Positions 24,469 through 54,513 are shown, counted from the stretch's first letter. The stretch: 64,000 bases of DNA from Sphingobacteriales bacterium (GCA_021298155.1 JAJTEN010000002.1:10580-74579), one strand, 5' to 3'. A program made the numbers and translations. Notes: generated by a model not told the origin, from the sequence alone.

Positions 24469-24590
24469 AATTGATTGGGAATAAATGTTTAACATTGTTT
24501 TCCCTCGCAAATTGATGTTGCTATGCTACTACAAAGTAAATTTTAGATTACTAAAATAACACCTGATTGTAAAGAATACGTTAAGTAAGC

Positions 24591-25856
24591 TTACTTCACA
24601 TAAAACGGGAAATTGCCATAGGCAATTTGATTTTGATGATCGGTGATATATACAAAGAGTCTGTAAGCCCCATTTTGCATGGGAGCTTTAAAACTAAAAG
24701 CATCTCCAGTTTTAACTATATGAATAGGCAAGGCATCTGGTTTACGTTCAGCATCTCCACCAGATAAGGTAAATTCACTTTCAGGCATAAGTTCCCATTT
24801 ATATTGTAAACCTCCTTTGGTGCTATGCTCAATATCCAATTGAACCAATACTTGGGCGCGTTTGCTTACCTTTACACTAGCTGCAGCTTCCATCCCATTT
24901 AAAGTGTATTGCTTAATTCTTGGAGCCACCAGCTCAAGCGGTTTATTGCTCCATTCTTGTTGCAATACCTGCACACATTCACCATATTTATTATCAACAA
25001 AAACACCATACCAAGTAGGGGTTGTTTCTTGTTTTTGTCCCCATAAAAACACATAAGAACCCAAACAAATGGCACTATCTGCCAATATATGTTCCCGGTA
25101 CCGTTTTTGGTAAGTAATCGCCTTCTCTGTAGATGTTTGTTCTATGGGAGCTAACCAACTCGTTTTAGCAACCTCCCAATGGCCATTCGGACCCCATTCT
25201 GTTACCATATAGGGTTTATTCCAACCATACAAACGAATTTTTTGTGCCAAAGCTGGCAAATCTCCGTATGTATTTACACCCAAAATATCTATGTCCTTAC
25301 ACTTCTCTTTTATTAATGAAACTTCTGGCGCATCAATACCAGCTGTTACAACACAAGTAGGGTGATTCTTATCTTCTGCATGAATCATTGCTGCTATGTT
25401 TTGTACGGCATCCCAAACCGCAAAATCTGTATAAAACAAATCAACCTCATTACCCACACCCCATAATAATAATGCTGGATGGTCTTTGTAACGCTTCACG
25501 ATACTTTTAAATTGATTTAATTGATCCAAGCAGGCCAACTTATCACTATAATCAAAACCATGCCTCTCTGGTGGCATCCATAAACCAAGCATTACCGTTA
25601 ACCCACGCTTATGCGCTTCATCTAAAACCTCTTTTGCATTCTCTGCTCCCCACAACCTAACAGAATTAGCACCAGAAGCAAGTGCAATATCCATGTATAC
25701 ATGTCCGCCTACACCCTTTACATAATAAGGTGTATTATTTCTGAGCATTGTAAAATTACCTGCTTCATCTGTTTTAATGGTAACAGGCACTGGCTGCGCA
25801 TATACCCCACAAGTGAATAAAAGAAAGAGAAAACAAATTACTAGCACTTGTTTCAT
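24591..25856 (-). CDS. Glycoside hydrolase, GH2-like TIM barrel (clan GH-A)
   Basis: GANSVRLW, YKDHPALLLWGVGNE (acid/base), KPYMVTEWG (nucleophile). Confidence 0.85.
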   Translation of the reverse strand: MKQVLVICFLFLLFTCGVYAQPVPVTIKTDEAGNFTMLRNNTPYYVKGVGGHVYMDIALASGANSVRLWGAENAKEVLDEAHKRGLTVMLGLWMPPERHGFDYSDKLACLDQLNQFKSIVKRYKDHPALLLWGVGNEVDLFYTDFAVWDAVQNIAAMIHAEDKNHPTCVVTAGIDAPEVSLIKEKCKDIDILGVNTYGDLPALAQKIRLYGWNKPYMVTEWGPNGHWEVAKTSWLAPIEQTSTEKAITYQKRYREHILADSAICLGSYVFLWGQKQETTPTWYGVFVDNKYGECVQVLQQEWSNKPLELVAPRIKQYTLNGMEAAASVKVSKRAQVLVQLDIEHSTKGGLQYKWELMPESEFTLSGGDAERKPDALPIHIVKTGDAFSFKAPMQNGAYRLFVYITDHQNQIAYGNFPFYVK

Positions 25857-25860
25857 AAAC

Positions 25861-27675
25861 CTATTGTGTTTTTACTAATTTAACTCGCCCTTGTGTAATG
25901 CCATTTCCTACTTGCAACCAATATATGCCGCTTGAAATGCCTGGTAATTGCTTGTTTAAATCTGTTAAATTACCAACAGAAATGATAGATTTTCCATGAA
26001 TATCAAATAACTCAAAGGCATTGGGTACAAATGGTAAATCCAATTGTAGTTCATCCAAAATCGGATTGGGATAAACCTTAATCCCCCAGTTACTTTGCTC
26101 TAAATCTAGTAAGGCACTTTGAATATCCTTACATGGCTTTTCTTCAATGGCAAAATCATCAAAAAAATACACATCATTTGTATTTGTATTTGGTGCCAAC
26201 AACATCACCAATTGATCTATGCTGCCGTCTAAAGTATTTGGATCGGGCCTAAGAATTAATTTAAAGGTAAGCTCTTCCCACGACCTAGATTTGGTGGTTT
26301 TAGCCTGCAAAACACAACGCCTTCCAATAGGATAATCTTGCCCAGCACGGAGCCTGTTTTCAAAATTGATATTTATCTCTGTACCTACAGGAGCAGTAGT
26401 ATATAACTTCATTTTTAAAATCAAATTTCCACGCTCAAAATCACTCGCATTTTTTATTGGCATCGCCTTTAACCACAATGCATCATAGGAAACAGCCGAA
26501 TTTCTATAATACCTATTTACACCGTTACTAGCGTTTACACTGTCTTTTGCCGGATTGGTTATACTCCCAGCAAAGGTTCCTGTGCTACCCACCCAATATA
26601 TACTTCTTTGTTTTTCCAAATTATCTATTACTCCTTCGCAGGTATCTGGAAGGGCCCGAACCCATTTTGCTATCTTCTTAGATTTTCCATTATGGGTTAT
26701 CGTAACAAAAATAGAATCACTTTTTAATCCCCAATCTATTTTAGCCTGATCCAAACTAGCGCCGCTTCTAATACTTGCGCCTGCAGGCACCTCCCATAAA
26801 TAAGTGGCGCCTGGCAATTTTTGTGTGTAAAATATTTGGTTGGTGTCTTTTCGTAAAATAGCATCCGGACCACTAATAAAAATATGTGAAAGATCTTGAT
26901 ATACGCGAATATAATCTACCTGTAAAGTAGCCGTATCAGGAGTAGTAGCATCAGGATAACCTAAAAAATTACCACCAACTGCTAAGTTCATAATAACATG
27001 AAAATTTCTATCAAAAGGCCACCAAAAAGGATTGGTATTCACGCGCGTTTTAGTGCTATACAAAATAGTATCTACGTACCACTCAATGGTATTTTCATTC
27101 CATTGTAAAGTATACACATGAAAATCATTTGCAAAACTTCCATTGCTCAGGGTATAGGTAGTACCCGTGTATCTATTGTTAGGCACATAGGCGCCATAAT
27201 GAATCGTCCCATGCGTTGTTTGCGGTTCTTGACCCTTCGCTTCCATTAAATCTATTTCTCCACTTAATGGCCAAATACCATAATGATTCTCCGAAGGTAG
27301 AAACCACACCGCTGGCCAATATCCTCGTCCAACAGGAATGCGTGCACGTACTTCAATTCTACCAGAGGCAAAATCAACTTTATTTAATGTTCTAATGCGG
27401 GCAGAGGTATAGGTGTTTGAACCCACCGTTTCTTTTTTAGCAGAAATAGTCAACATACCATTCTGAACCTTCACATTTTCTTGCTTGTAAAATTGGAGTT
27501 CATTATTACCCCAACCGCATAAGTTAGGACATCCATTCCCTATTTGGTAACTCCAAAAATTGGTATCTAAGTTGTTCCCATTAAACTCATCACTCCAACG
27601 CAAAAACGCTTGTGCTTGGCTAAAAATTGGGTTCAAACCAACTATTAAAAATATATATGCTTTTAGGTATTTCAT
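25861..27675 (-). CDS. GH16 endo-beta-1,3-glucanase (laminarinase-type) with PKD-like linker, CBM-like domain and T9SS CTD
   Basis: WSDEF, GWGNNELQ, YTSARI, WPAVW, WPLSGEIDLME, NLAVGG; CTD VYPNP. Confidence 0.93.
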   Translation of the reverse strand: MKYLKAYIFLIVGLNPIFSQAQAFLRWSDEFNGNNLDTNFWSYQIGNGCPNLCGWGNNELQFYKQENVKVQNGMLTISAKKETVGSNTYTSARIRTLNKVDFASGRIEVRARIPVGRGYWPAVWFLPSENHYGIWPLSGEIDLMEAKGQEPQTTHGTIHYGAYVPNNRYTGTTYTLSNGSFANDFHVYTLQWNENTIEWYVDTILYSTKTRVNTNPFWWPFDRNFHVIMNLAVGGNFLGYPDATTPDTATLQVDYIRVYQDLSHIFISGPDAILRKDTNQIFYTQKLPGATYLWEVPAGASIRSGASLDQAKIDWGLKSDSIFVTITHNGKSKKIAKWVRALPDTCEGVIDNLEKQRSIYWVGSTGTFAGSITNPAKDSVNASNGVNRYYRNSAVSYDALWLKAMPIKNASDFERGNLILKMKLYTTAPVGTEININFENRLRAGQDYPIGRRCVLQAKTTKSRSWEELTFKLILRPDPNTLDGSIDQLVMLLAPNTNTNDVYFFDDFAIEEKPCKDIQSALLDLEQSNWGIKVYPNPILDELQLDLPFVPNAFELFDIHGKSIISVGNLTDLNKQLPGISSGIYWLQVGNGITQGRVKLVKTQ

Positions 27676-29957
27676 TGGTTTGTAATAGTTATGTTTTGAC
27701 TTAAGGTATCTACTGAAAGTTTAAATGAACCGGGTTCAACGCCCCATTTGTTTGATAGTCCAACAAATGCTAAATGTTGCACAGGTAATTCTATTGAAAC
27801 AATTTCACTTGCTCCCGGCCTCAAAAAAATCTTTCGAAATGCCCGCAATTTTTTTACCGAAGGTGTAATACTTGCCACCTCATCTTTACTGTAAAACAAT
27901 GCGGTATGCAAACCCTCCATGTTACCTATATTGCTTATGGTAACATTCATTTTAATGGTATCTGAAAGTGTATAACTTTCTTTATCACAAGTAAAATTGC
28001 TGTAAACATACCCTGTATAACTAAGGCCTGAACCAAACTCAAACAATGGATTAAAGCCCAATGGTTTAAAATCTTTGTTCAACACCTCCGTATATTTACA
28101 ATCGTATGTTAGATGAAAACTCGAATATCTTGGATAGGTAAAGGGTAATTTACCTGAAGGATTAGATAAGCCACATAATACATTTGCTATAGCAGTTCCA
28201 CCGGCATCTCCAGGTAAACCTGCAAAAATAATAGCATCACATAAAGACTCGGTGTTAGCAAAGGTTCTAGGCCTTCCTTCCAATAAAACTACAATCACCT
28301 TTTTCCCTGCTTGCTTATATACTTTAATCAGGTGTTGTTGAGCTGCAGAAAGTTCTAAATCCAATATATCTCCAGGTTTTTCTGTGTAGGTATCTTCGCC
28401 TAAAAATAATACCACTGAAGCTATATTTTTTGCCGCTGCAAGTAATGCTTCATCAGACAAATTGGTATCATAAGTATTACCCGGCAAATAAACCACTTTA
28501 TCCATCCCATGTATGTTTTGCAATGCCTCCAAACATGTTGGAACCTCAGAATTATAAGTGGTATCTCTACCTTGCCAAGTATGTGTCCAACCTCCATTTA
28601 ACGCATTTATATAATGCGCATTGGCACCTGTAACTAAAATCTTTTCAGTTGGAGATAATGGTAAAGCTTGATTTGAATTCTTTAATAAAACTAAACTTTG
28701 TGTAGCCAATGCCAAGGATAACTCTTTACTTTGGTCTGAACCAATTGAATCATATTTACTGCTATTTGCAGGTGAGTGTTCAAATAAACCAAGTTTAAAT
28801 TTAAGGGTTAATATCCGCAAAACAGATTGATTTATGCGCGTCATTGAAATGTTTCCTTCCTTTACATTTTCAATTAGGTAATGCGTAAATAAAGTATCTA
28901 AGGGAACCATAGCCATATCAATTCCAGCATTAATAGCCACGGCTACCGCTTCTTTATAGGTGGATACTATTTTATGTCGCTCATACAAATTTTTGATGTC
29001 TTCCCAGTCTGTTACCGTTATCCCTTTAAACTTTAATTCTTCGCGCAAAATAGTTTGTAATAAAAACTTACTGGCATGAACAGGCTCGCCATTTACTTCA
29101 CCAGAGTTTATCATGATAGTTTGTGCGCCAGCCTCAATAGCTTGAGCAAAGGGCGGTAAAAAAATTTCACGCAATTGCCTTTCTGGGATATAAGCAGGAG
29201 TTCTATCCATTCCACTGCGGGCATCTCCATAACCAACATAGTGTTTTAAACAAGCTGCTACTCCAGGTAGTCCATTTTTTGAAGGCATTTGATAGGCTTT
29301 AACCATACTCGAACCTAAGCATGAGGCCACCATTGGATCTTCACCAAATGTTTCCCAGAACCTAGGCCATCTTGGATTTCTAGCTACATCTAAAACTGGA
29401 GAAAAATTCCAAGCCAAACCACTTGCACGTACATCATTGGCAGTATTGGTAGCCATATCTGCTATCATATCTGTATTAAAACTAGCTGCTAAATTGATTT
29501 GCTGCGGGTACAGGGTTGCACCTACAGTATAGTTGGCGCCATGTATCGCATCTATCCCATACAAAACGGGTATTTGAAGTCGCGTTTGCATCCGATACGC
29601 ATGCAAAGCTTCGCTCACTTCTTTCCACTGAGCCAATGTAAAAGTATTACCAGGTACATTTAATATAGAACCTACACCCATTTCTACCAATACTTTTCTG
29701 AGCCTAACAGTATCTAAAGCATGCGGCTTTGTTAAATTAAATTGGTCTTTACCCTGCAAAATCATCTCAATACTAAGCTGTGTCATTTGCCCTGCTTTCT
29801 CTTCCAAACTCATCTCATTTAGAATAGCTTGGGCGCGCTCCTCTGGCAATTTATCTTTGGCCGACTTACACGATGAGATAGCCAATAATAAAGTAAATAC
29901 ACCCCAAATAATTTGGTTCGAACCTAATTTTTTTCTAATTGTATATGATCTATCCAT
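27672..29957 (-). CDS. GH3 beta-glucosidase (lipoprotein)
   Basis: SLEEKAGQM, DAIHG, ETFGEDP, KHY, VTDW, NPSGKLP, Fn3-like tail; lipobox ISSC. Confidence 0.93.
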   Translation of the reverse strand: MDRSYTIRKKLGSNQIIWGVFTLLLAISSCKSAKDKLPEERAQAILNEMSLEEKAGQMTQLSIEMILQGKDQFNLTKPHALDTVRLRKVLVEMGVGSILNVPGNTFTLAQWKEVSEALHAYRMQTRLQIPVLYGIDAIHGANYTVGATLYPQQINLAASFNTDMIADMATNTANDVRASGLAWNFSPVLDVARNPRWPRFWETFGEDPMVASCLGSSMVKAYQMPSKNGLPGVAACLKHYVGYGDARSGMDRTPAYIPERQLREIFLPPFAQAIEAGAQTIMINSGEVNGEPVHASKFLLQTILREELKFKGITVTDWEDIKNLYERHKIVSTYKEAVAVAINAGIDMAMVPLDTLFTHYLIENVKEGNISMTRINQSVLRILTLKFKLGLFEHSPANSSKYDSIGSDQSKELSLALATQSLVLLKNSNQALPLSPTEKILVTGANAHYINALNGGWTHTWQGRDTTYNSEVPTCLEALQNIHGMDKVVYLPGNTYDTNLSDEALLAAAKNIASVVLFLGEDTYTEKPGDILDLELSAAQQHLIKVYKQAGKKVIVVLLEGRPRTFANTESLCDAIIFAGLPGDAGGTAIANVLCGLSNPSGKLPFTYPRYSSFHLTYDCKYTEVLNKDFKPLGFNPLFEFGSGLSYTGYVYSNFTCDKESYTLSDTIKMNVTISNIGNMEGLHTALFYSKDEVASITPSVKKLRAFRKIFLRPGASEIVSIELPVQHLAFVGLSNKWGVEPGSFKLSVDTLSQNITITNQ

Positions 29958-31111
29958 AATTCTCCTTCTTGCAAAAATGTTATCAATAGTTGTTTAAAAT
30001 TCTGGGTATTAAATTTAGCCTTATTCCAGTCGAATGCCGACAATGGAATCCGCACTTTTTGCCATTTTTTACCTTGCCTATCTATTTGTTGTAGTTCACT
30101 TAAAAACGACTGATTTAATCCAATATTTACCTGCTCACCTGAATACGATTCAAAACCAATTTGTATCTTATTGAGCTCAGATAAATTAGGCGTATAAACA
30201 AAAAAACTTAGGCTATACGCATCTATAGAATCTGGCAAAGCAATGGCTTGCCAACGTTCCCAATTAAAGCCTATTTGGTTATTAACATGGCTATTTTTTA
30301 TAAGATCCCATGATAGGTGTAAGGCAGAAGTCCCCATTAAATAAATTTGGGAATCTAGCTGTATTGTTCTGCCTAAATATGTGCCCAATCCCCATGCATA
30401 TTGCATATTGTCTTCAAAAATCAATGCCGGAAATGTTTGGGTAGTGGTTTGGCCAAATTTTTGATTCTTTTTAGCCTTCGCTTTATTTCCTTCTTCAATA
30501 AATATTTCATCTATCAAAATAGCTCCCTCACCCTGACACTCTATATTTAAACTCTTAATATTGCTAAAATCACTTTTTGGTCCAGCAGCCTCTAAAAACG
30601 CAGATAATGGAATAATTACTTTTTGCCATGCTTCATCTATTGGATATCGCTCTAAGTATTTCGCTTTAAACAAGGCAGCAGTTTGTATGCCACTATAATC
30701 TTCTAATAAAAATATTAAAGTAGGCACAAATTGAGTGCCTTTAATAGCTCGGATATAAAAAGTAATATTTCCATTTTGCATTACCGGTGTAAGGTCTTTC
30801 GCAGCATACCCATTCCACCCAATTCCAAATCCTAACCAGGCACATGATCCAGTTTTATTCCATTGCAATTTAATGCTCGATTTACCTTTATAGGCAAGCG
30901 TATCAATCCTACTAAAATGTTTGCAATCTGTTTTTTCTAAGCCCCAAATATCTGCTGTTTGGTTACTAAAAATTTCCTTATCCGTAAATACTTGTTGCTT
31001 CTCTAGATCATAGGTATTTCCCCACTCATCCACTAAGTTTTGTGTTTGCATATGGATACCACATGCAGACAGAAAAATTAAACACCAAGTGAGATAACTG
31101 ATCCGCTTCAT
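29924..31111 (-). CDS. Lipoprotein with two tandem CBM-like beta-sandwich domains
   Basis: Lipobox LSAC; internal repeat WQKV(I/R)IPLSAF...G-x-x-x-ID(E/H)I twice. Confidence 0.7.
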   Translation of the reverse strand: MKRISYLTWCLIFLSACGIHMQTQNLVDEWGNTYDLEKQQVFTDKEIFSNQTADIWGLEKTDCKHFSRIDTLAYKGKSSIKLQWNKTGSCAWLGFGIGWNGYAAKDLTPVMQNGNITFYIRAIKGTQFVPTLIFLLEDYSGIQTAALFKAKYLERYPIDEAWQKVIIPLSAFLEAAGPKSDFSNIKSLNIECQGEGAILIDEIFIEEGNKAKAKKNQKFGQTTTQTFPALIFEDNMQYAWGLGTYLGRTIQLDSQIYLMGTSALHLSWDLIKNSHVNNQIGFNWERWQAIALPDSIDAYSLSFFVYTPNLSELNKIQIGFESYSGEQVNIGLNQSFLSELQQIDRQGKKWQKVRIPLSAFDWNKAKFNTQNFKQLLITFLQEGELWIDHIQLEKN

Positions 31112-32145
31112 TAGGGTTGAAAGGGTTTATAATAGGTGAAATTTGCAAAATCAATGCCCACTCGCGTAATACCACTTGTACCCGGCTGAGATAATAACAA
31201 GAATTGAGTAGCAATAATTCTGTCGGGATCCTTCTTGCCTGTTCTATCTACATTACCAAAGCCGCCAGAAGTAGAAATTCGGGTATCTCCGTAAGAGAAG
31301 CTAACCAATTTCCAACCTTGCCAATTAACAGGTAAGCGAAAGTTATACGCGCCCTCTTCCGCAGGCTGATAAATACCATCTTTATTGTCGTCTTCTTGAA
31401 ACTCAATACTCAACTCCGCCTTATTATCGCCCCAACCATACACATATGCATTAAAAAAAATATTATTCGGATTTTCAGTGGCAAATGAAAAATAATTAGA
31501 TCCTAAACCCTGACTTACGCGCGCACTCAAGTTCATACCGCATAAAAATAAACTGGCCGTTGGACCTCTATTACCCGCTAATACATAGAATCTTGTTTTT
31601 TCTGTTGGCGAAACTCCTTGGTAATTTACCGATGTTCCATTAAAGGTTTGCTGACCTTCAGTAAAAGTATTGTAAGGCCTTTGCGGACTCTCAAAATCGT
31701 CTATTAATATATCTACTTTAGGTGTTGGCCGAACATCTGTAATCGTTAGCGTATCAGAATAAATGGTATCGGGATAATTCTCAAATCGCAAGCGAGCAAC
31801 ACAGGGTTCATTTTTTCTAAAAAAAGGGGCAAAAGTAATGGTACCATCCCAACTAATGGGAAAGGCATTAAAGTCTTTTTCATTGCCAGTAAACGTTTTT
31901 TTAGCACCGCTATTTAAGCCTATTACCTCCATTGTCCATTGTGTTCGAATACTTAATTTACCCTTAAATAGCACCTGTTCTTGGTTCGCAAAATTCACCG
32001 TTTTTACAGAGGCACGAATAGGTTCAAGCAAAGCAAATTGGCCAAATAAATCAACTAATTCTGGCCCTTCAATTGCTGTATCTTTTTTGCAGCCCATGAA
32101 AAGAATTAAATAAACCCCAATAAAAATTAACAAAAGCTTTTTCAT
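31111..32145 (-). CDS. Surface lipoprotein with an Ig-like domain and a CBM11-like domain
   Basis: Lipobox FMGC-KKD; LIDDFE...VNWQGWKLVSFSY. Confidence 0.7.
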   Translation of the reverse strand: MKKLLLIFIGVYLILFMGCKKDTAIEGPELVDLFGQFALLEPIRASVKTVNFANQEQVLFKGKLSIRTQWTMEVIGLNSGAKKTFTGNEKDFNAFPISWDGTITFAPFFRKNEPCVARLRFENYPDTIYSDTLTITDVRPTPKVDILIDDFESPQRPYNTFTEGQQTFNGTSVNYQGVSPTEKTRFYVLAGNRGPTASLFLCGMNLSARVSQGLGSNYFSFATENPNNIFFNAYVYGWGDNKAELSIEFQEDDNKDGIYQPAEEGAYNFRLPVNWQGWKLVSFSYGDTRISTSGGFGNVDRTGKKDPDRIIATQFLLLSQPGTSGITRVGIDFANFTYYKPFQP

Positions 32146-32149: not shown

Positions 32150-33871
32150 CTAGAAAAATAAATTATAAAGTACCGAAAGCCTATTTATTCCATATTGGTT
32201 TTGTGGCATTAGCTCATTGTTCCAATTTACCTGTTGCCACTGAATTTTAAGGCAATTATGCTTACTAAATTGATAGTTTAATCCACTTAAAAATAGGGTT
32301 TCTTTTAAATCGTAATTACTTCTTTCATAAAATACAATTTGATTAAACGCATTTCTAGTAGGCATAAATTCATTCCCTTTTGCTTGAACCAATAACAAGC
32401 CCATTTGTAAATGTAATTTTGGAACTAATTCATAAGATACACCAAGCTTTATCTGACTTGCATTCAATTCTATTTCCTCAATATTTTTTATTCCCTCACG
32501 TTGGGTATTTTGAAGGCGATAAAACACGCTTAGGTTCAGCCTACGTTTGCCATTGTAAAAATGGTTGATATTGCTGTTTGCATCCCATTGAATCTCTGAA
32601 AAATTTCGCAAATTTAGCGTGCCTTGTCCGCTTATTTCATTATAGCGCGCCACACGGATATTGCTTACAAATAAACCTAGTTGTACTTTAGATCTAAATC
32701 CAATTTCTCCTTGTATACCTTGTCTATTTGGCGTTGCATGGCCATAAGGCAAAATATTTTCATAAACAGGATTAAACCCTTGAAGATTGGGAGTTAAAAA
32801 TAGGTTATAATAATTTCCATCTGTTAGTATATCTAACATATTGGCAGGTCGCACACTTTCTCTATTGGTATAATATGCGTATTCACTGGCAACTGCATTA
32901 AAATCTACCCTTCTACTTTGTGCACCCATACTTCTAAAATGGGTTTCTACTCTATTGGCATGCAACTTTACATGCCATACTTTAGACGGATTAAACGTTA
33001 AACTTGCAGTGGCAAAATTGCCCCTTGGAATATTGGGAGCAGCTAGCATATTTTCATAAGCCACTTTGGAAAAACCAGCCTCGCCACTCAATTTAAATTG
33101 AAATTGTTTGATAGAAAAACTTTCTGTAAGTCCGAAACTATGCACCGTATTACTAAACCTAGCATCAGAAAACATCGCAGATTCTCTAACATCAAAAATA
33201 TGGGCCAAATTATACTGTAATCCCAGATTCTTAAACAGCGTGATGTCGGCACTAGCGCCAGAAAATAGCCGATCTGGCGTACTAAAATAATCGGTTTGGC
33301 GATTTTTGGCAATCATTCCTTTTATTTTCATGGAATTAAATACCTCATTAAACTTAAATCCAAAATCTATCTGCGCACCTTGCTGTCGCCAAGAATTTTC
33401 TCCATAAAATTTATCATAGGCAATCACTTCCGAAAAAGTGTTTAATGCCTCTGGATTGTGATGCGATAATTCACCTTCAGAATTGTACAAGGTAAAAGGT
33501 GTCATACGGGTATTTAAATCTCCAACTTGGTATTTAAACTTTTTTAACAACAAGCCACGTAAATACAATTCACGCACATTCATTACAATACCTCCTCCCC
33601 AAAACCCATTAATATCATTGGTAACACGCGTTATGGCCTTAATTTCAGTTTCGGCGCTAGGCTTAATATGAAAACCCAAATCAAACAGGGTACTGCCGCG
33701 CATCTGCTTTCTTGGTGTAACCGAATCGGTGTTTAATAAGGCTCCATGTATACTGCCATTATTTAAAGCAAAACGGCCCGATCCAAAAAAATCTATTTTC
33801 TTTTCTTGGGCCACCAATAGATTGGGTAGCATAAGAAGTATATAGATAAAATAGGTAATGTGTCTTTTCAT
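32150..33871 (-). CDS. Uncharacterised outer-membrane beta-barrel-like protein B
   Basis: Signal peptide, amphipathic strands, C-terminal LSVLYNLFF; no TonB plug or TPR signature recognisable. Confidence 0.7.
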   Translation of the reverse strand: MKRHITYFIYILLMLPNLLVAQEKKIDFFGSGRFALNNGSIHGALLNTDSVTPRKQMRGSTLFDLGFHIKPSAETEIKAITRVTNDINGFWGGGIVMNVRELYLRGLLLKKFKYQVGDLNTRMTPFTLYNSEGELSHHNPEALNTFSEVIAYDKFYGENSWRQQGAQIDFGFKFNEVFNSMKIKGMIAKNRQTDYFSTPDRLFSGASADITLFKNLGLQYNLAHIFDVRESAMFSDARFSNTVHSFGLTESFSIKQFQFKLSGEAGFSKVAYENMLAAPNIPRGNFATASLTFNPSKVWHVKLHANRVETHFRSMGAQSRRVDFNAVASEYAYYTNRESVRPANMLDILTDGNYYNLFLTPNLQGFNPVYENILPYGHATPNRQGIQGEIGFRSKVQLGLFVSNIRVARYNEISGQGTLNLRNFSEIQWDANSNINHFYNGKRRLNLSVFYRLQNTQREGIKNIEEIELNASQIKLGVSYELVPKLHLQMGLLLVQAKGNEFMPTRNAFNQIVFYERSNYDLKETLFLSGLNYQFSKHNCLKIQWQQVNWNNELMPQNQYGINRLSVLYNLFF

Positions 33872-33872
33872 A

Positions 33873-35798
33873 CTAAAAAAATACTTTAAGTTCTATGGTG
33901 GTTTCTGTTCCCTTTATCTGGTCTTTTACAAAGCTCTTATCTTGCTGATTAAACCACCTTCTTCGAGCATATAAATAGGTATTGTTGCTTATTCTATAAT
34001 CCATTCCCAATCCAAATAAAGTTCCTTCTTGATTAACCGGATCATTAGCCAAACTCCCCAATATTCCATCCACATTATCACCTCTATTTAGCTGATTATT
34101 TCCTTTAATATATTCTTTACCATAAGTACTTACCAAACTTAAAGAATTACTCAGTTTAAATATAGCATCTAACTCATGATAATGCGTTCTTAATAGCGCT
34201 TTATTTCCATTTATAGGTATCAGGCTAAAGCCTTCCTGAGCCGAACCAAATGAACCCACGTAGAGCAAATAAAACGGAAGAAATGAATTGTTAATATACT
34301 GCTTTATTTGAACCTGAAGCATGGTAAAGCCTAATAAAGATTTTGGTAATCCTATACTGTTGGTATCAGTAATAAACATACTTTGAGAGAATCCTCTGAA
34401 ATAACTAGTCCAATTGCCATAAGCACCAATATTATTGGTAAACGGACTAAACCTAGAAAAGGGTAAAGCATTTATTTTATGCCCAAACGCAAGCTCATTT
34501 CCCAAACTTCGTATTTCGGTTGCACACATGTTACCAATGTTTATTTTGCTGGTTTTTGTTATATCAAACCATGCATTTACACTAAATCCTTTTCGATTAC
34601 TACTAACCTGTCCAACGTCGGTAATAGAACCCGCAAAGTTGCTGATACCGCCGCTTCCTCCTAAGGTAGAACCGCTTTGGTTCACGGCAGCAGAACTTAC
34701 AATATTGGTATTGCCGCTTAAAAAATTGCCATAATAATTTATAAACTCCGGACTCACATAAAATCCTTCAAGCTCTATCGGAACAAAGGTATACTTCTTA
34801 GGTGAACGAATACTTAATCGCGCTGCATTCCCCCATCCAGCCTCTTGTACCTCAGAATATAACCTTCCCCTTCCAAATTCTGTAGTTATTTTAAAATCCT
34901 TAATGGTGCCATCATAGCTTAAGGTGTGCAACTGTATTCCAGCTTCCTCTTTTGCTATAGAATCTGGATACAACCTGTAATCTATAAATTGTGCGCCAAA
35001 AGTATGGTCTCCTAGCTTTTTCCTGATTCTACCTCCCATTGTATAAGAAGGAATTTGATTGGTAAGAAAGGCTTGAGCTGGAGTGGTTCCATATAACAAG
35101 CGAAGTTCAATATTCCCCGGCAATTCCTGACCATCTACCATCAAACCTCTGAACGGCTGCATACCAAATCGCATGTCTCTGCTAATGTTGCCGTAGTTAT
35201 AATAGTTAGAGGCTCGGTCAAATGAAACTTCATTACCTTCCCAAGGCCAACGTTCATAAATACTAAATCTTTGATAGCCAACAAAACTACTAAATACCAT
35301 TCCGCTTAATTCAATCCAATTAATACCGCCCATGTGCGCAGTAAACTTCCCAATATCTGTTTGTATGCTGCCCGTAAGGTTTATTCCCAAATTCAAATTC
35401 ATTGGACTCTCACCTGGCCTACCCGAAAAATTATGGTAGAGGGCGTAATCCATACCAATGTATGTTTTTGAAGTTGGCTGAACCGAAACATTAAGTAACA
35501 TCAGCGGAGGATCACGGTATACGTCGCCTGTGCCCAACACAAAAGCTGGCGCACTTGCGTAGGGATTTCCCGGAATAACGATAAACGCTTGTTCTAAACT
35601 TCGATTAATTCCGAAAAAGCGATAGTAGCCCCCAACGCTTAATTTTTTCAATGGTAATATATCTGCCTTGCCCGAGGAAATTGGGCGGTCTTGCATACTC
35701 GTATCTTGCTCCTGTGCAGCTACAAAACATGGACCCATCAGGCAAAAAATCACCTGAATGATGTAAAAATAAATGCGCAGCCTGGCTTTCAATGACAT
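33873..35798 (-). CDS. Uncharacterised outer-membrane beta-barrel-like protein A
   Basis: Signal peptide, amphipathic strands, C-terminal TTIELKVFF; distantly similar to the next gene. Confidence 0.7.
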   Translation of the reverse strand: MSLKARLRIYFYIIQVIFCLMGPCFVAAQEQDTSMQDRPISSGKADILPLKKLSVGGYYRFFGINRSLEQAFIVIPGNPYASAPAFVLGTGDVYRDPPLMLLNVSVQPTSKTYIGMDYALYHNFSGRPGESPMNLNLGINLTGSIQTDIGKFTAHMGGINWIELSGMVFSSFVGYQRFSIYERWPWEGNEVSFDRASNYYNYGNISRDMRFGMQPFRGLMVDGQELPGNIELRLLYGTTPAQAFLTNQIPSYTMGGRIRKKLGDHTFGAQFIDYRLYPDSIAKEEAGIQLHTLSYDGTIKDFKITTEFGRGRLYSEVQEAGWGNAARLSIRSPKKYTFVPIELEGFYVSPEFINYYGNFLSGNTNIVSSAAVNQSGSTLGGSGGISNFAGSITDVGQVSSNRKGFSVNAWFDITKTSKINIGNMCATEIRSLGNELAFGHKINALPFSRFSPFTNNIGAYGNWTSYFRGFSQSMFITDTNSIGLPKSLLGFTMLQVQIKQYINNSFLPFYLLYVGSFGSAQEGFSLIPINGNKALLRTHYHELDAIFKLSNSLSLVSTYGKEYIKGNNQLNRGDNVDGILGSLANDPVNQEGTLFGLGMDYRISNNTYLYARRRWFNQQDKSFVKDQIKGTETTIELKVFF

Positions 35799-35966: not shown

Positions 35967-38849
35967 ATGCCACTAATTGATCACCACCAAATGCCAAAAA
36001 AAGGGATATATTTACTATTTTATTGTTTCGTGCTTGGCATACTAAAACTGGCATCACAACCCATCAATACAGCTCCCTTGGTTAAAAACTATACCAAACA
36101 AATGTATCAAGGTGGAACACAAACTTGGGACATTTGTGAAGATCATAAAGGGCTAGTTTTCTTTGCAAATAATAATGGACTACTCCTTTTCGATGGACGA
36201 GCATTTACTAATTTTCCATTACCCGGTAAAACCATTCTTCGTTCTATTTTATATGATTCTATCTCTCACAGAATTTATGCTGGTGGGCAAAATGAAATAG
36301 GATATTATGGATATACCGAAAGTGGCAACTTACATTTCGTTTCCCTCGCTCATTTACTCCCCAAAGAATATAAAGGTTTTGAAGATGTTTGGACCATTTT
36401 ACAGAAAAATGGAATCATCTACTTTCAAACCAGTAAAACCATTTTTGCATTTCAAAATAATAAAATGAGTTTGCTAAAACCTAGCGAACAATCGCTAGAA
36501 AAAATGCAAATAGCCAATCAAAAACTATACGTTTATGATGCTGCTGGCGCCGTTTTTGAACTTGAAAATATCGCTTTTAAACAAATTATTCCAGCTAGCA
36601 ACTTAGACATATCCGCAATCGTTGATTTAAATAGCCAAACCCTACTTATTTGTACCTATAAAAATGGCTTGTTTGTTTACAAAAACAATATCCTGAGTAA
36701 AGCACCTTTCAATGATGAAGAATTGAAAAATTTTAGGATATATAGGGCCTGTAAATATGGTAATAAAATTGTAATCGGAACAAGCAGATCTGGTATTTTC
36801 TTTCTAGATGAAAATGGCAACATAATCTCTAAAATGAATATTCAAACCGGACTCCAAAACAACAATGTGCTGAGTTTATTCGCAGATAAAAATAATAATC
36901 TTTGGCTCGGCCTAGATAATGGAATTGATTTACTACGACTTAATTATCCTTTTGCATACATTTACCCCGACGGCATTTTAAAGGGTACTGGCTACTCTAT
37001 GACCAATTTCCAAGGTAAAGATTACTTTGGAACAAATAACGGACTATATGAACACCTGGCAGGCGAAAATTTTAAACTGATAAAAAATACAGAAGGTCAA
37101 GTCTGGAGCGTTCAACAAATTCAACAAAAACTATTTGTTTCACACCATGAAGGCTTGTTTGAAGTAATCGCAAATGAAGCCATCAAAATTGCAGACATTA
37201 GGGGCTGTTGGAAAATTTTAGAATTAAAAAATAAGCCTGGCTACTTTATAGTTGGTACCTATAATGGTATTAGTGTCTACAAATGGACTAACAATAGCTT
37301 ATCATTTGTAGCTAAGCCTTCAAACTTCAAAGAATCTAGCCGCTTTATTGAGGAAGATGAAAACGGAAATATTTGGGTAGGTCACCCCTATAAAGGCCTC
37401 TACAAACTAACATTAAATTCAAATTTTACGCAAATTCTAGAAGCTAAGCGGTATGGAAAAGCCCAAAAACTACCGGCTGAAACAGAGAATTTAGTATTTA
37501 ACTTAGGTAATGGCATTTGCTTTACCAGTAATGAGGGTGTATTTCAATACAATTCGGCTTTAGATGGCTTTGAACCCATTAAAATATTTGGGGGGATATT
37601 TAATAAAAATCAAAACTATAAGCGAATCATTCCGGGTAAAAACGGCAAGTTATGGGTTATTCAAAATCAAGAAATTTCATTTATTAAACAATCCTACAAT
37701 GGGGTAGATTATTCTTATGAGAAAAAAGCTATCCCAAAAATGGATCAAAATTTAGTTGGTGGTTTCGAATTCTTGCAAGAATGCGAAGGAGATAATCTTT
37801 TTCTTGGAGTAGAAACTGGTTTTATGAAACTCAATTTGAAGCAAATGGAAACATTTGTCTTAGACCCGCCAAAGGTTATTATAACTCAAATAAACGGACT
37901 CACCTTGGCAGATAGTTCGTACTTTAAATGGATTGATAATACAACACCAAAATATAGCATTCCAGATCGGTCTATCGAATTTTGGTTCAGCTCAACGAAT
38001 GGAAACTTTTATAATGATTTAAGCTTTTCAACCTATTTAGCCGGATGGGATAAAACCTGGACGCCTTATAAAACAAGCAACAGCAGAGAGTTTAGCAGGC
38101 TATCATACGGAGATTATACGCTTCATGTAAAAGCGAAATGTATGGGTGTAGAGGGCCCGCCATTATTGCTAAAATTTAGTATTCCCGCTCCTTGGTATTG
38201 GAGCACTATAGCGAAAGTATTTTATGCTCTTTTTGCTATTCTTAGTATTTTACTGATTGGTTTTTACCCGCAGCGACTTGTTCGAAAAAAAGCTAGCCGA
38301 ATTATAGCCGAGAAGCAAGACCAATTTAACAAACAACGTGCAGATTTATTGCTGGAAAAAGAACATAAAGAAAAAGAATTAATTGCCCTCAAAAACCAAC
38401 AATTGCAAATTGAATTGGAACATCAAGGCAGAGAATTGGCTTCTTCCACTATGCACATCGTTCAAAAGAGTGAAATGCTCTTGAGCATCAAGGAAAAACT
38501 CAAAAAAATCAATAACCTCAGCAACGACCCAAAGATAAAACCAGAAATGAGTGAGCTCATTAAAACCATTGAGAAAGACACCCTCATTGATAAAGACTGG
38601 GAAAAGTTTGAACTCTACTTTAATCAAGTTCATAATAGTTTTACCCAAAGTTTAAAATTACGTTTCCCGAGTTTATCTGCAAACGACATCAAAATGTGCT
38701 CTTATTTGCGGATGAATTTATCTACCAAAGAAATCGCGTCTATACTCAATATTACCACGCGAGGGGTAGAAGTAAGCAGATATCGCCTGAGAAAGAAAAT
38801 GGGCTTAGAAAATGGGGCAAATATTGGCGACTTTCTGAGCCAATTATAA
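35967..38849 (+). CDS. Membrane-spanning one-component sugar sensor/regulator (beta-propeller, Y_Y_Y, TM, LuxR-type HTH)
   Basis: Propeller repeats (LWLGLDNGI), YGDYTLHVKA, PWYWS plus TM, C-terminal LSTKEIASILNITTRGVEVSRYRLRKK. Confidence 0.9.
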   Translation: MPLIDHHQMPKKGIYLLFYCFVLGILKLASQPINTAPLVKNYTKQMYQGGTQTWDICEDHKGLVFFANNNGLLLFDGRAFTNFPLPGKTILRSILYDSISHRIYAGGQNEIGYYGYTESGNLHFVSLAHLLPKEYKGFEDVWTILQKNGIIYFQTSKTIFAFQNNKMSLLKPSEQSLEKMQIANQKLYVYDAAGAVFELENIAFKQIIPASNLDISAIVDLNSQTLLICTYKNGLFVYKNNILSKAPFNDEELKNFRIYRACKYGNKIVIGTSRSGIFFLDENGNIISKMNIQTGLQNNNVLSLFADKNNNLWLGLDNGIDLLRLNYPFAYIYPDGILKGTGYSMTNFQGKDYFGTNNGLYEHLAGENFKLIKNTEGQVWSVQQIQQKLFVSHHEGLFEVIANEAIKIADIRGCWKILELKNKPGYFIVGTYNGISVYKWTNNSLSFVAKPSNFKESSRFIEEDENGNIWVGHPYKGLYKLTLNSNFTQILEAKRYGKAQKLPAETENLVFNLGNGICFTSNEGVFQYNSALDGFEPIKIFGGIFNKNQNYKRIIPGKNGKLWVIQNQEISFIKQSYNGVDYSYEKKAIPKMDQNLVGGFEFLQECEGDNLFLGVETGFMKLNLKQMETFVLDPPKVIITQINGLTLADSSYFKWIDNTTPKYSIPDRSIEFWFSSTNGNFYNDLSFSTYLAGWDKTWTPYKTSNSREFSRLSYGDYTLHVKAKCMGVEGPPLLLKFSIPAPWYWSTIAKVFYALFAILSILLIGFYPQRLVRKKASRIIAEKQDQFNKQRADLLLEKEHKEKELIALKNQQLQIELEHQGRELASSTMHIVQKSEMLLSIKEKLKKINNLSNDPKIKPEMSELIKTIEKDTLIDKDWEKFELYFNQVHNSFTQSLKLRFPSLSANDIKMCSYLRMNLSTKEIASILNITTRGVEVSRYRLRKKMGLENGANIGDFLSQL

Positions 38850-38918: not shown

Positions 38919-41666
38919 TTATTCTACTACCAATTTTACTGTTTTAACAGATTGGTTCATAGAAACCTTAACAAGGTAAATTCCTTTTTCTAAGCCTTCA
39001 ATTGGCAATGCATATTCAAGTTTACCCGCAGCTAAATTACTTTGCTTAGTTACACTTGATCCAAGTAAATTGAAAATTTCAATGCTTAACGGCATGTTAG
39101 ATTCTTTTGGTAAACTCAATGTAAACATGCCAGAAGCTGGATTTGGATAAATAGACAATCCACCCAATACTTGCTCTTCCATACCAATTACCTCACAAAT
39201 TGTACAGGTATTCCAGCAATACGCACCCACCTTTACAGCAGAAGAATCACTGATTCTAACAAAACGATTGGTAAATGTGCCTGTAGTTCTTGTACATGGA
39301 TCGCCAGGGTTGAACTTCTCATCATCCACCCAATTGCCTATCGTATATTTAAACTCATAGCTACCAGTATCTAATCTTAATTTTACTTCATAAATATTAT
39401 TCCCTACCAATGTCATTGGCGTGCAATCTCCACACCAGCCATTAAATGAGCCATTTAGTGTTACACCTTTGCTCAAATCTCCCACGTAATCTTTCATGTT
39501 AACCCTGAAAGTTACCATTGATCTTGGTGCGGTCTTATCACAAGTTACACAGCTTTCCCAACAAACAAGTGGTAAGGTATCCTGCGGCTTGTTAGCTACT
39601 TTAAAAGTACGATTGGTGAAACCAAAAGCAGTTCTTGTACATGAACTTCCCTCAACTAAAATTTCTTGTGCCTTCCAGTTGCCAATTGCATATTTAAAAT
39701 CATAGCTAGAATCTTTGTCTAATAATACTGTAGCCATCCAAATATTGCTTGATCCTTGCTTTGTCATTGGTGTACAATTGCCACACCAGCCATTAAAGGT
39801 TCCATTAAGCGTTACGGTATCTGTTGCAGATAAATTATATTTAGACATATCTACTTGGAAACTTACATTAGATTTAGTAACAGCGCCACCCGAACAAGCA
39901 GAACAAGATTCCCAACAAACTGGTGCTAAATTGATATCACTATTCAAAGTATTTAAAACCCTGTTGGTATTAACTCCTGTAGTTTTTGTACATGGTAATG
40001 TGGTAGCCAAAGATTCCTGACTTACCCAATTGCCAATCGTATACTTGTATTCATACTCGGTGTTTTTATCCAAAGGAATGGTAATCGTCCATGATGAGGT
40101 GCCTGGTATTTTTGTCATTTTTGCACATGCACCACACCAGCCATTAAAAGTTCCGTTTATAGTAACTGTATCGCTTGCTGTTAAGGGTAGGTTCTTAACA
40201 TCTACCGTAAAGGTTACATTTACTTTAACAGGCGGTGGCGGTGTAATGCCTGAACCAAACTTCACGTCGTCAAAATAATAAGTCTTCTCTCCAGCTGTTT
40301 GGCCAGTTGTTCCGAAATTAAAGAAGATAGACAACATCTTGTAGGTATAGGTAAAATTGATAGGTGCAGTAGCTGTAACTTGATTTGCAAAATCAAAATC
40401 TAAAACTTCCCAAGAACCAGCTGTCTTAGTTCTAGCCTCTGTTTCTACACTTTTTGTTGGATCAGTAGGATCTTCTGCCTTCAATCTCACTGCAATTCCA
40501 CTGTCTGGCGACCAAACTCTAACATTTAATTTAGTAGACCCACTTACAAATGGAATAGCTTCTGCCAAACCAGTACTTGGGTTCATAGTAGTTCCTGCCC
40601 ATAACTGAGCAGTATTGGTTTTTATTACTTTAACTACTTTGTTCAGACTATTGGTTGGATCAGTAACAATACTGCTTGCATTGCCTCCAAAATCAGCCAA
40701 TACGTAATTCACATTACTTGAATCAAAGGTAATCGGTAATTTAACAGTTTGAAGCACAGGTGCACTCGGTGGCAACATTCTTACATTATCAAAATAATAT
40801 GTTTTTTCACCCGCAATGGCACCGGTTGTACCAAAATTAAAAAATACAGACAATTTGTTGTAAGCAAAAGTAAAGTTAATAGCAGGAGTTCCACTTGATT
40901 GATTTGTAAAGTCAAACTCTAAATCTTGCCAAACATTTGCCGCTGTTGTGCGTGTATCTGTTTCTACACTTTTGTTGGCATCGCTCGACATTTCAGCCTT
41001 AAGCTTCACCACTATTCCGCTATCTGGCGACCAAACACGAATTTTCATCTTGGTGGCATTACTTGCAAAAGGAATTGAGTTGTTAAACCCTGAACCTAAG
41101 CTTGTTCCAGCCCACGCTTGGGCAGAATTGGTTTTAATAACCTTGGCAACTTTGTTGCTTGAATCAGTTGGATCAACCACAACTGAACTTGCATTACCTC
41201 CAAAATCCAACAAATTGTAATTTACATTACTGCTATCAAAATTAATGGGTAAGGTCATAGCCTGCAAGGTTGGACAAGCTGAACAAGAGTTCCAACATAC
41301 CAATGACATGGTTGTATCTGCAGTAACAGTAACTTTACGGTTAGTAAATGTGCCTGAAGTTACTGTACAAGGAGAGCCACTTGCGAGCGACTCTTGTGCA
41401 TTCCAACCGCCAATTGTGTATTTAAATTCATGATTTCCAGAAGGAATTGAAAAGGTGCCCTGCCAAACATTGGTAGTCCCTTGCTTTACCAAAGGATTAC
41501 ATCTTCCACACCACGAATTCCAAGTTCCATTCACATAAACTGTATCATTTAAGTTTTGATACTGAGACATGTCTACCCTAAAGGTAACATTGAAGCTTTG
41601 TGCTTTTACTGCCCCGTAGGTTAGCAATAAAAGCATAAACATCGTCCATTTTGTAAAATTTCGCAT
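38919..41666 (-). CDS. Non-catalytic T9SS-secreted repeat protein (4 Cys-rich Ig/CBM-like repeats, 2 CBM-like repeats)
   Basis: V(T/S)FxV(D/N)...NG(T/S)(W/F)N(S/G)WCGxC...CWxxC four times; LPIxFDSSNVNY...GEKTYYFD twice; CTD IYPNP...GIYLVKV. Confidence 0.85.
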   Translation of the reverse strand: MRNFTKWTMFMLLLLTYGAVKAQSFNVTFRVDMSQYQNLNDTVYVNGTWNSWCGRCNPLVKQGTTNVWQGTFSIPSGNHEFKYTIGGWNAQESLASGSPCTVTSGTFTNRKVTVTADTTMSLVCWNSCSACPTLQAMTLPINFDSSNVNYNLLDFGGNASSVVVDPTDSSNKVAKVIKTNSAQAWAGTSLGSGFNNSIPFASNATKMKIRVWSPDSGIVVKLKAEMSSDANKSVETDTRTTAANVWQDLEFDFTNQSSGTPAINFTFAYNKLSVFFNFGTTGAIAGEKTYYFDNVRMLPPSAPVLQTVKLPITFDSSNVNYVLADFGGNASSIVTDPTNSLNKVVKVIKTNTAQLWAGTTMNPSTGLAEAIPFVSGSTKLNVRVWSPDSGIAVRLKAEDPTDPTKSVETEARTKTAGSWEVLDFDFANQVTATAPINFTYTYKMLSIFFNFGTTGQTAGEKTYYFDDVKFGSGITPPPPVKVNVTFTVDVKNLPLTASDTVTINGTFNGWCGACAKMTKIPGTSSWTITIPLDKNTEYEYKYTIGNWVSQESLATTLPCTKTTGVNTNRVLNTLNSDINLAPVCWESCSACSGGAVTKSNVSFQVDMSKYNLSATDTVTLNGTFNGWCGNCTPMTKQGSSNIWMATVLLDKDSSYDFKYAIGNWKAQEILVEGSSCTRTAFGFTNRTFKVANKPQDTLPLVCWESCVTCDKTAPRSMVTFRVNMKDYVGDLSKGVTLNGSFNGWCGDCTPMTLVGNNIYEVKLRLDTGSYEFKYTIGNWVDDEKFNPGDPCTRTTGTFTNRFVRISDSSAVKVGAYCWNTCTICEVIGMEEQVLGGLSIYPNPASGMFTLSLPKESNMPLSIEIFNLLGSSVTKQSNLAAGKLEYALPIEGLEKGIYLVKVSMNQSVKTVKLVVE

Positions 41667-41767
41667 AGTTTTTTTAATTATTGGTGTAAAAATAACCCCG
41701 AACCAAGCCTCACACAAATTTACCAACCCTACAATACTTTCACTTAATAACTATACGAAAAAACAAA

Positions 41768-48718: not shown

Positions 48719-49513
48719 ATGGAAATTATTGGATATTTAGCCTCTGCTCTAATAGGAATATCTCTTGGGTTAATTGGTGGTGGTGGCTCAATTTTAACCG
48801 TACCTGTTTTGGTTTATTTATTGGATGTAAATGCCGTTGAAGCCACCGCATATTCCCTTTTCATAGTTGGTTCAACAGCTCTAGTTGGTGCCTACCCGAA
48901 ATATAAACAAGGCCTTGTTAATATTAAAACGGCAATTATTTTTGGTATACCATCTATCATCGCGGTATACATAACCAGAAAATTTTTAGTTCCAGCCATT
49001 CCTTCCGATCTAATTACAATAGATGGGTTCATAATAACAAAAAGTATCTTAATGATGCTCATTTTTGCAGCACTAATGGTATTTGCATCTGCAAGTATGA
49101 TTAAAGACCAAAAAGTTGTTTCGAATCCAAAAAATACTGAACAAAAATTTAACTATCCTATGATTTTATTAGAAGGGACAATAGTTGGCATGTTAACTGG
49201 TTTAGTTGGTGCAGGAGGTGGATTTTTAATTATTCCCGCACTTGTAATTTTTACAGGGCTACCCATGAAAGAAGCAGTAGGCACTTCCTTATTGATAATC
49301 GCAGCAAAATCACTTATCGGGTTTACTGGTGATTTAGGGCATTTCAACATGAATTGGAAGCTATTACTAATCGTTTCAAGTATTGCAATTGCTGGAATTT
49401 TTATTGGTAATTACCTGTCGTTGAAAATTGATGGTGCAAAACTCAAAAAAGGATTTGGCTGGTTCGTACTAATAATGGGGCTATATATTATCGTTAAAGA
49501 ACTATTTTTATAA
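48719..49513 (+). CDS. TauE/SafE (TSUP) sulfite exporter family protein
   Basis: GLIGGGGSILTVP and GLVGAGGGFLIIP repeats; multiple TM helices. Confidence 0.92.
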   Translation: MEIIGYLASALIGISLGLIGGGGSILTVPVLVYLLDVNAVEATAYSLFIVGSTALVGAYPKYKQGLVNIKTAIIFGIPSIIAVYITRKFLVPAIPSDLITIDGFIITKSILMMLIFAALMVFASASMIKDQKVVSNPKNTEQKFNYPMILLEGTIVGMLTGLVGAGGGFLIIPALVIFTGLPMKEAVGTSLLIIAAKSLIGFTGDLGHFNMNWKLLLIVSSIAIAGIFIGNYLSLKIDGAKLKKGFGWFVLIMGLYIIVKELFL

Positions 49514-49519
49514 GGCCTT

Positions 49520-49564
49520 TGTAATAAATGTAACACAGGTTTTAAAATTAAAACCTCAATATTG
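49520..49564 (+). promoter_or_regulatory. Putative Crp/Fnr site plus -7-like box
   Basis: TGTAATAAATGTAACA (49520-49535), 21 bp, CAATATTG (49557-49564). Confidence 0.6.
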
Positions 49565-49594
49565 TAATCAACATAACAATACATATTTCATCAA

Positions 49595-51019: not shown

Positions 51020-51054
51020 AATATTTCAGTAAAAAAATAAATGTGATAAATAAT

Positions 51055-51618: not shown

Positions 51619-51632
51619 TTATCCTGAAACAA

Positions 51633-52043: not shown

Positions 52044-52078
52044 TTCAAATTTATTTTTAGTACCTAACTCAAATTATA

Positions 52079-54495: not shown

Positions 54496-54513
54496 TGGCT
54501 AAAATTACAGATT

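Follow-up and report, generated by a model that had tools for sequence, protein, structure and literature searches.

Two paralogous, predicted outer-membrane barrels at the head of a probable, atypical beta-1,3-glucan utilization locus in a planktonic Bacteroidota genome

Background

The closest described counterpart of the genes considered here is the cluster chu_1276-chu_1280 of Cytophaga hutchinsonii, which has been called an atypical polysaccharide utilization locus, PUL (Zhang et al. 2025, PMC12016534; statements taken from this and the other cited reports refer to the accessible parts of these sources). According to that report, the outer-membrane proteins CHU_1276 and CHU_1277 have an important part in the use of cellulose, which is markedly impaired when either gene is lost. 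CHU_1278 is predicted to bind glycans, CHU_1279 is an essential protein resembling SGBP-B (surface glycan-binding protein B) with two domains similar to carbohydrate-binding modules (CBM), and CHU_1280 is an endoglucanase. The predicted structure of CHU_1276 is barrel-like and retrieves TonB-dependent transporters, and the cluster is reported in two further cellulolytic species (PMC12016534). CHU_1277 has been given a role in cello-oligosaccharide assimilation and is called a porin (PMC5553014). Here we describe two adjacent genes, A and B, located in a window of 64,000 nucleotides (the whole stretch of DNA analysed, GCA_021298155.1 JAJTEN010000002.1:10580-74579, Sphingobacteriales bacterium; all positions are counted from its first letter). 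A and B are distant paralogs with the same predicted 22-strand barrel architecture, and they head a run of genes for two lipoproteins and a set of beta-1,3-glucan-degrading enzymes.

The locus shares with chu_1276-1280 the order barrel, barrel, lipoprotein, bimodular CBM-like lipoprotein and glycosidase, and both are without a SusC/SusD pair. B and the lipoprotein that follows it (here U344, after its length) have their homologs in genes two and three of metagenome locus L104, a close relative of the Cytophaga cluster. The differences concern the enzymes, which are GH16, GH3 and GH158 (beta-1,3-glucan) here versus a GH9 cellulase there, and the regulation, with a BguR-type regulator here and control by a sigma factor of the extracytoplasmic function (ECF) type reported for chu_1276 (PMC12016534). 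The host also differs, being a freshwater planktonic organism with a 2.5-Mb genome, and CHU_1276 exceeds A in length by about 100 residues. While three cellulolytic species are named in the accessible part of PMC12016534, we find clusters of this type, with varied enzymes, in at least 56 genome and 17 metagenome loci.

Two other systems invite comparison. With the SusC/SusD pair (BT1762-1763, PDB 5t3r/5t4y), A and B share the position as first genes of a presumably glycan-induced operon, a large barrel (22 strands as counted here) and a surface lipoprotein predicted on the extracellular loops. The barrel part of SusC superposes with A and B over approximately 385-411 residues. Unlike SusC, A and B have neither a match to the Plug family nor a SusD-family partner, the barrel is preceded by only about 25 disordered residues, and there are two paralogous barrels, not one. 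The sugar-specific porins (LamB, ScrY, chitoporin, OprB, and Occ/OprD) are likewise plugless barrels with long extracellular loops, and structural comparison gives Z values of 14-16. Their barrels have 16-18 strands, in contrast to the 22 found here, and there is no relationship in sequence. As to substrate, the beta(1,3)-glucan loci of Bacteroides reportedly carry GH16, GH3 and GH158 enzymes together with CBM-like surface glycan-binding proteins and SusC/SusD. By that account the enzyme set is the same as here, with the A/B barrels in place of SusC/SusD.

Results

Gene A (33873-35798, minus strand) is an open reading frame (ORF) of 641 amino acids (aa), gene B (32150-33871, minus strand) one of 573 aa. 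As noticed in an earlier note on this DNA, the genes are 1 bp apart, with the single nucleotide at 33872 separating the stop codon of A from the start codon of B (TAG-T-ATG on the minus strand), and the translations of both end in FF. The same note had listed six colinear motif pairs, and each of them is present and in the same register in the profile alignments: KKLSVGGYYRF (A 51-61) and KKIDFFGSGRF (B 24-34), LNVSVQPTSKTYI (A 102-114) and LGFHIKPSAETEI (B 65-77), TEFG..GNA and GEAG..GNF, YVSPEF and RVETHF, GQVSSNRKG (A 396-404) and GHATPNRQG (B 377-385), and finally TLFGLGMDYRIS (A) and TLFLSGLNYQFS (B). Several residues within these motifs are invariant in two small family alignments (31 sequences for A, 36 for B) and are superposed by hhalign, namely G57/G30, R60/R33, G396/G377, N401/N382 and G404/G385. 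In deeper alignments (94 and 118 sequences) G57 and N401 of A as well as G30, R33, N382 and G385 of B are still invariant, and R60 and G404 are conserved in more than 90%.

Compared as single sequences, A and B show no significant similarity (best BLASTP E 0.13), therefore the evidence for a relationship must come from the families. Searches across the families with hmmsearch give weak matches (best E 4.9e-5, in a 200-sequence set). A shallow hhalign comparison (31 versus 36 sequences) yields a probability of 62% and an E-value of 7.5e-5 over 511 colinear columns; a separate run scored 46.0, the two reversed controls reached 19.2 and 16.4, and block shuffles stay at or below 28.5 in 20/20 cases. 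The distant paralogy that had been proposed from the motifs is borne out by the deeper comparison (94 versus 118 sequences), in which the probability rises to 98.7% with an E-value of 3.8e-16 and a score of 138.8 over 484 columns, spanning A 53-617 and B 27-564. A repeat run with the deep profiles scored 124.3, against 17.6 and 20.6 for reversed controls. Judged by these profiles, A and B are homologous and go back to an ancient duplication.

Protein A consists of a signal peptide (approximately residues 1-28, ending in ..AAQ), a disordered stretch (29-46) and a barrel (53-641) with the C-terminal FF. Protein B has a signal peptide ending in ..VAQ and a barrel from residue 26. The AlphaFold2 models are confident (A: mean predicted local distance difference test, pLDDT, 89.4, predicted template modelling score, pTM, 0.86; B: 92.5 and 0.87), and the matches retrieved for both by Foldseek and VIA-align are outer-membrane barrels only, in agreement with the folds anticipated in the earlier note. 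By its signal peptide, terminal FF, modelled barrel and barrel-only structural matches, A is predicted to be an outer-membrane barrel. The DSSP list of the model of B contains 22 strands; on one face the connecting segments measure 2-10 residues, on the other 5-74, as would suit a barrel whose two termini are periplasmic. The same 22 strands are found in A when its model is aligned onto B by deep hhalign, with extra elements in one loop; all strand counts are read from DSSP lists of predicted models. TonB-dependent transporters likewise have 22 barrel strands.

The structural matches form a flat list (TMq at most 0.40, Z approximately 12-16.5) that comprises ushers (Z 15-16.5), Occ porins (Z 14-16) and TonB-dependent transporters (Z 12-14), the latter with the longest alignments, which start after the plug of the transporter. 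The SusC-like BT1762 aligns with A at Z 13.9 (404 residues at 4.7 A) and with B at Z 14.1 (385 residues at 4.3 A). No barrel family stands out in the structure searches, hence no family is assigned from structure. The family profiles of A and B retrieve nothing meaningful among PDB sequences. Neither protein has a Pfam match to the Plug family (PF07715) at E-values up to 0.01, and none of the 24 genome-wide matches of this family lies at A or B. Pfam and NCBIfam contain no model that matches A, B or U344. Relatives found by a word-indexed search (78 for A, 204 for B) are without exception hypothetical proteins of Bacteroidota; a profile search of 1.84 billion representatives returned 283 A-family clusters at E at most 0.001, and 5/36 members of the B family match Pfam OMP_b-brl.

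Several long segments outside the strands are well predicted; those of B include some of its best-conserved motifs. Loop L7 of B (residues 309-382, 74 aa; 32726-32947, minus strand; block pLDDT 92-96), non-strand according to DSSP, contains the family motifs FRSxGAQSRR and PYGxATPNRQG as well as Q318, R341, L363, P375, G377 and N382, which are invariant in the 36-sequence alignment. Loop L3 of B (residues 122-160, DSSP helix at 141-154; 33392-33508, minus strand), with T127 and Y152 invariant in the same alignment, is a candidate for a loop that constricts the lumen. The short loop L8 of B (residues 412-419, EISGQGT; 32615-32638, minus strand) carries E412, G415 and G417, invariant in 118 sequences. 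In A, a long DSSP loop between strands 13 and 14 (residues 349-401; 34596-34754, minus strand) is flanked by the motifs YVSPEF and GQVSSNRKG and has one low-confidence stretch (374-384); in and around it F352, N354, F359, F388, G390, S391, G396, N401 and G404 are invariant in the 31-sequence alignment. Loop 8 of A, between strands 15 and 16, is the site of a conserved insertion of about 45 residues (approximately 436-480, FGHKINALPFSRF...YFRG; 34359-34493, minus strand) that is left unaligned by hhalign and has no counterpart in B. It is modelled as short strands and a helix, and H440, S448, R449, F453, G458, Y460, W463, R468 and G469 are invariant among the 31 sequences. As a wide barrel must be closed somehow, the earlier suggestion that a mid-protein, non-strand segment could plug the lumen is a reasonable conjecture. 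The mature N-terminus of A (residues 29-46, approximately 35661-35714) is predicted to be disordered (pLDDT below 50), and its Asp32 is near-invariant among close relatives.

We note that some A-family proteins are larger. Four proteins of about 800 aa (P0226, P0232, P0239 and P0285) all have a similar N-terminal extension after the signal peptide; of the three scanned by Pfam, P0226 and P0232 match CBM_4_9 in this extension and P0285 has no Pfam match. With standard barrel topology the extension would start in the periplasm.

The link to Cytophaga was established via L104, whose A-type protein is 77% identical to a protein of C. hutchinsonii ATCC 33406. The 90% cluster of that match contains ABG58548.1, annotated as 'hypothetical protein CHU_1276' and named at NCBI also 'CHU_1276 family cellulose-binding protein'; no NCBIfam model matches CHU_1276 itself. 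A and CHU_1276 align end to end (A 53-641, CHU_1276 77-747; 27% identity, BLASTP E 1e-51), and B is 29% identical (E 3e-56) to the product of the gene next after the CHU_1276 orthologue of L104. A is thus a CHU_1276-family protein whose gene opens a cluster in which a second barrel, two lipoproteins and glycosidases follow, and B, a predicted outer-membrane barrel encoded directly after it, is placed with CHU_1277 by synteny. The claim that the pair represents one new outer-membrane family is not supported: A is a full-length homolog of CHU_1276, B matches the neighbor of a CHU_1276 orthologue, and the layout is that of the atypical PUL described in the accessible part of PMC12016534.

Downstream of B, on the same strand, are two lipoprotein genes. 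U344 (31111-32145, minus strand; 344 aa), the third gene of the module, occupies the position of CHU_1278, has a lipobox (..FMGC19) and finds no match among PDB sequences. The fourth gene (29924-31111, minus strand) encodes a protein of 395 aa with a lipobox (..LSAC17) and a CBM30-like domain (Pfam CBM30, E 1.4e-15, in two stretches). The complex of B (22-573) and U344 (19-344) was modelled with a family alignment for each chain. The model reached a score of 0.68, compared to 0.01 for the best of 3 controls; as a rough guide, given that custom alignments were used, this value is reached by 116/157 solved complexes and by 2/215 mismatched pairs. Three runs share at least 68% of the contacts, and the partner pLDDT is 81 or higher. 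The confident contacts connect residues 23-35 of U344, just after the lipidated cysteine (32041-32079, minus strand; family consensus EGPELxDIFG), with residues 310, 382, 414-419, 461, 463-465 and 502-517 of B. By our strand count these are the ends of L7 and the loops L8-L10, all on the extracellular face, and they include the invariant residues of L8 named above. The model thus supports binding of U344 to the extracellular loops of B.

The association of A, B and U344 is conserved. We compiled 56 loci from species-representative genomes, all of them metagenome-assembled and mostly labelled Bacteroidota, Flavobacteriales or Chitinophagales, in which the order is regulator (on the opposite strand), A, B, U344, CBM30-like protein, GH3 and/or GH16, and sometimes GH158. 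B directly follows A in 52/52 genome loci with at least 300 bases after A, with a gap of -1 to +2 nt in 50/52; U344 follows B in 46/46 loci with room. Scanning metagenome contigs for a divergent A subfamily added 17 loci, with B after A in 15/15 and a U344 homolog after B in 12/13 of those with room. In total, A and B are adjacent in 67/67 loci with room. Of 301 genomes sampled across the phylum, 3 contain A and the same 3 contain B, adjacent in each case; the module recurs at two of these loci. The metagenome loci vary in their neighbors, which include GH9 with CelD_N (L102, L104, L107), two GH10, a GH43 and a sugar transporter of the major facilitator superfamily (L112), GH97 with CBM9 proteins (L110), GH3 (L116), and a CBM30-GH26-CBM9 protein with GH16 (L114). 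Marine loci of Flavobacteriales type have a sodium:solute symporter gene directly upstream of A (L099, 15821-17512; L100, 747-2354), which is likely to serve as the inner-membrane step; no such gene adjoins the operon in the window.

The lipoprotein genes are followed by genes for a GH3 beta-glucosidase (27672-29957, minus strand; Pfam E 1.1e-74) with a lipoprotein signal (N-terminus ..AISSC), a GH16 enzyme of endo-beta-1,3-glucanase type that also has a PKD-like domain and a tail for type IX secretion (25861-27675, minus strand; Pfam), and a GH158 glycoside hydrolase of 421 aa (24591-25856, minus strand). The latter was assigned through its phmmer matches in PDB, to 9oro ('Glycoside hydrolase family 158', E 4e-95) and 6pal (E 3.8e-68). 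The presence of these three enzymes upholds the connection to beta-1,3-glucan made from the sequence before. Together with a secreted protein of 1760 aa, they complete a series of eight successive minus-strand ORFs that begins with A. Divergent from A is a regulator gene (35967-38849, plus strand; 960 aa), and most related loci likewise have a homolog of it upstream of A, on the opposite strand. The protein combines a signal peptide, Reg_prop, Y_Y_Y, one transmembrane helix (approximately 748-766) and a GerE helix-turn-helix; Pfam detects no HisKA, HATPase or response-regulator domain. By this domain order, the same as in BguR, a laminarin-PUL activator of marine Bacteroidota (10.64898/2026.01.10.698779, accessible part), it is a BguR-type regulator. 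The operon contains no SusD-family Pfam match, and the single SusD match of the 2.5-Mb genome is on another contig. No gene for a TonB-dependent transporter is present in the operon, nor in any of the 56 related loci from genomes. Four RNA-library runs (four studies) yielded contigs that lie on A, B, U344, GH3, GH16 and GH158 at 95% identity or more; none of the contigs listed spans the A/B junction.

Discussion

We consider it probable that A, B and the two downstream lipoproteins form the outer-membrane capture-and-entry module of an atypical PUL, in place of SusC/SusD. The BguR-type regulator would sense beta-glucan fragments and switch the operon on, and the GH16 enzyme, secreted by the type IX system, would cut beta-1,3-glucan (laminarin) at the cell surface. 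The two lipoproteins would hold the glycan at the barrels, with at least U344 sitting on the extracellular loops of B; A and/or B would then let oligosaccharides through the outer membrane, with the breakdown completed by GH3 and GH158. Passage through the barrels, its independence from TonB and any contact between A and B, as required for the heterodimeric channel of the earlier note, are suggested by gene context and by the genetics of Cytophaga.

A number of points weigh against this interpretation. Loss of chu_1276 or chu_1277 also lowers beta-glucosidase activity associated with the cells (PMC5553014), which fits a scaffold as well. The score of the B-U344 complex expresses the confidence of a model and is not a measurement. 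The assignment of B to the CHU_1277 type derives from synteny and homology to the L104 gene, and the 395-aa protein has no sequence similarity to the product of the fourth gene of L104. Likewise, the RNA-library contigs are a weak indication of operon expression and no proof of transcription, as carry-over of DNA is possible.

A and B might instead be paralogous channels that work separately, either in parallel or divided by oligosaccharide size, each with its own lipoprotein and without A-B contact, such that the pairing reflects co-expression only. We regard this as a serious possibility, though not the one we expect to hold. In its favor, B receives a lipoprotein partner of its own in the complex model, and the conserved loop-8 insertion that A has and B lacks points to diverged roles. 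According to the accessible part of PMC12016534, chu_1276 is a target of an ECF sigma factor and chu_1277-1279 may have a weak promoter in a 123-bp segment upstream of chu_1277, which together suggest two expression units. The strict adjacency described above argues in the other direction, as it is maintained between subfamilies that are only about 27% identical, and so does the marked impairment of cellulose use upon loss of either gene (PMC12016534), although neither observation proves contact. Since deep divergence has not separated the two genes and the loss of either markedly impairs cellulose use in Cytophaga, A and B are not redundant; this fits a hetero-complex and equally two channels with different tasks.

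It is improbable, in our view, that the barrels serve mainly as anchors or scaffolds for surface enzymes and lipoproteins, and that oligosaccharides enter elsewhere, for instance through a TonB-dependent transporter. The beta-glucosidase activity lost from the cells of chu_1276 and chu_1277 mutants (PMC5553014) would be explained, and the 24 Plug-domain matches show that the genome offers candidates for such a route, but neither the operon nor any of the 56 genome loci contains a transporter gene of this kind, a large barrel is a costly anchor, and the poor growth of the chu_1276 mutant on low glucose (PMC12016534) is a better fit to a channel. That the barrels are related to DUF6029 and Wzi and export or bind cell-surface polysaccharide instead of importing it is very unlikely, since the neighbors are degradative enzymes with no synthesis or export genes among them, even though DUF6029 is the nearest named family for A and B in a protein-language-model search (score 0.96) and an HHpred comparison has connected it with the Wzi barrel (PMC9603273, accessible part).

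DUF6029 was also considered as the family of A and B and rejected: hhalign against 23 DUF6029 proteins gives probabilities of 4.7% for A and 11.4% for B (E 0.0086 and 0.0026), and at E-values up to 10 the Pfam model (PF19494) matches one protein of the genome, at C2:89668-91335, and neither A nor B. That protein (L068) is a true, single-copy DUF6029 member (E 2.6e-128), of a kind found in 31/151 sampled genomes of the phylum.

To return to the capture-and-entry module, the kind of system is already known, from one model organism. A literature search, which did not extend to the primary papers on CHU_1276 and CHU_1277, found no description of a locus such as this one. It appears to be unreported that the two barrels are paralogs with the same 22-strand architecture, that the module of A, B and lipoprotein is widespread in planktonic freshwater and marine Bacteroidota, and that it is joined to enzymes for various glycans; in the present 2.5-Mb genome, where SusD is matched only once, these make up a complete laminarin set under a BguR-type regulator. 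A further, rather speculative and on the whole doubtful extension is that A, B and the lipoproteins constitute a second general glycan-import machine of Bacteroidota, parallel to SusCD: a plugless hetero-oligomer of 22-strand barrels, each capped by a lipoprotein, free of TonB and adapted, in abundant freshwater and marine lineages, to laminarin, cellulose, xylan and further glycans.

PUL prediction in Bacteroidota, and much of glycan ecology, relies on SusC/SusD pairs, and the locus described here would therefore be missed, despite being a complete and conserved laminarin operon in a streamlined planktonic genome with one SusD match. The tractable model C. hutchinsonii becomes relevant to uncultured freshwater and marine lineages; conversely, the uptake of cellulose products by C. 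hutchinsonii, long an open question, may find a general answer in a paired-barrel importer. The structural hypotheses are now concrete: barrels of 22 strands that lack a plug, a pair of long conserved loops, and loops 8-10 of B as the docking site of a lipoprotein.

Other genes in the window

The last of the eight minus-strand ORFs, the gene of the 1760-aa protein (19228-24510, minus strand), begins about 80 nt downstream of the GH158 gene; its product joins 5'-nucleotidase/metallophosphatase parts to a choice-of-anchor I domain and a SusE-like domain and carries a tail for type IX secretion. Beyond the regulator gene, at 38919-41726 (minus strand), lies the gene of a type-IX-secreted protein of 935 aa that is made up of the starch-binding modules CBM48, CBM20, CBM53 and X25 and in which Pfam detects no catalytic domain; a smaller relative adjoins the module in L098. 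Further outer-membrane proteins are encoded nearby, namely an OprD-family porin (53077-54495, plus strand) and, at 57679-63034, a CarboxypepD_reg/OMP_b-brl_3 receptor and a Plug-domain receptor. A sulfur-related gene run (48719-56226, plus strand) consists of a TauE exporter, a metallo-beta-lactamase fused to rhodanese and a SoxA/TsdA-type cytochrome c, together with an OprD-like porin and a 5'-nucleotidase-family protein that could be SoxB-like.

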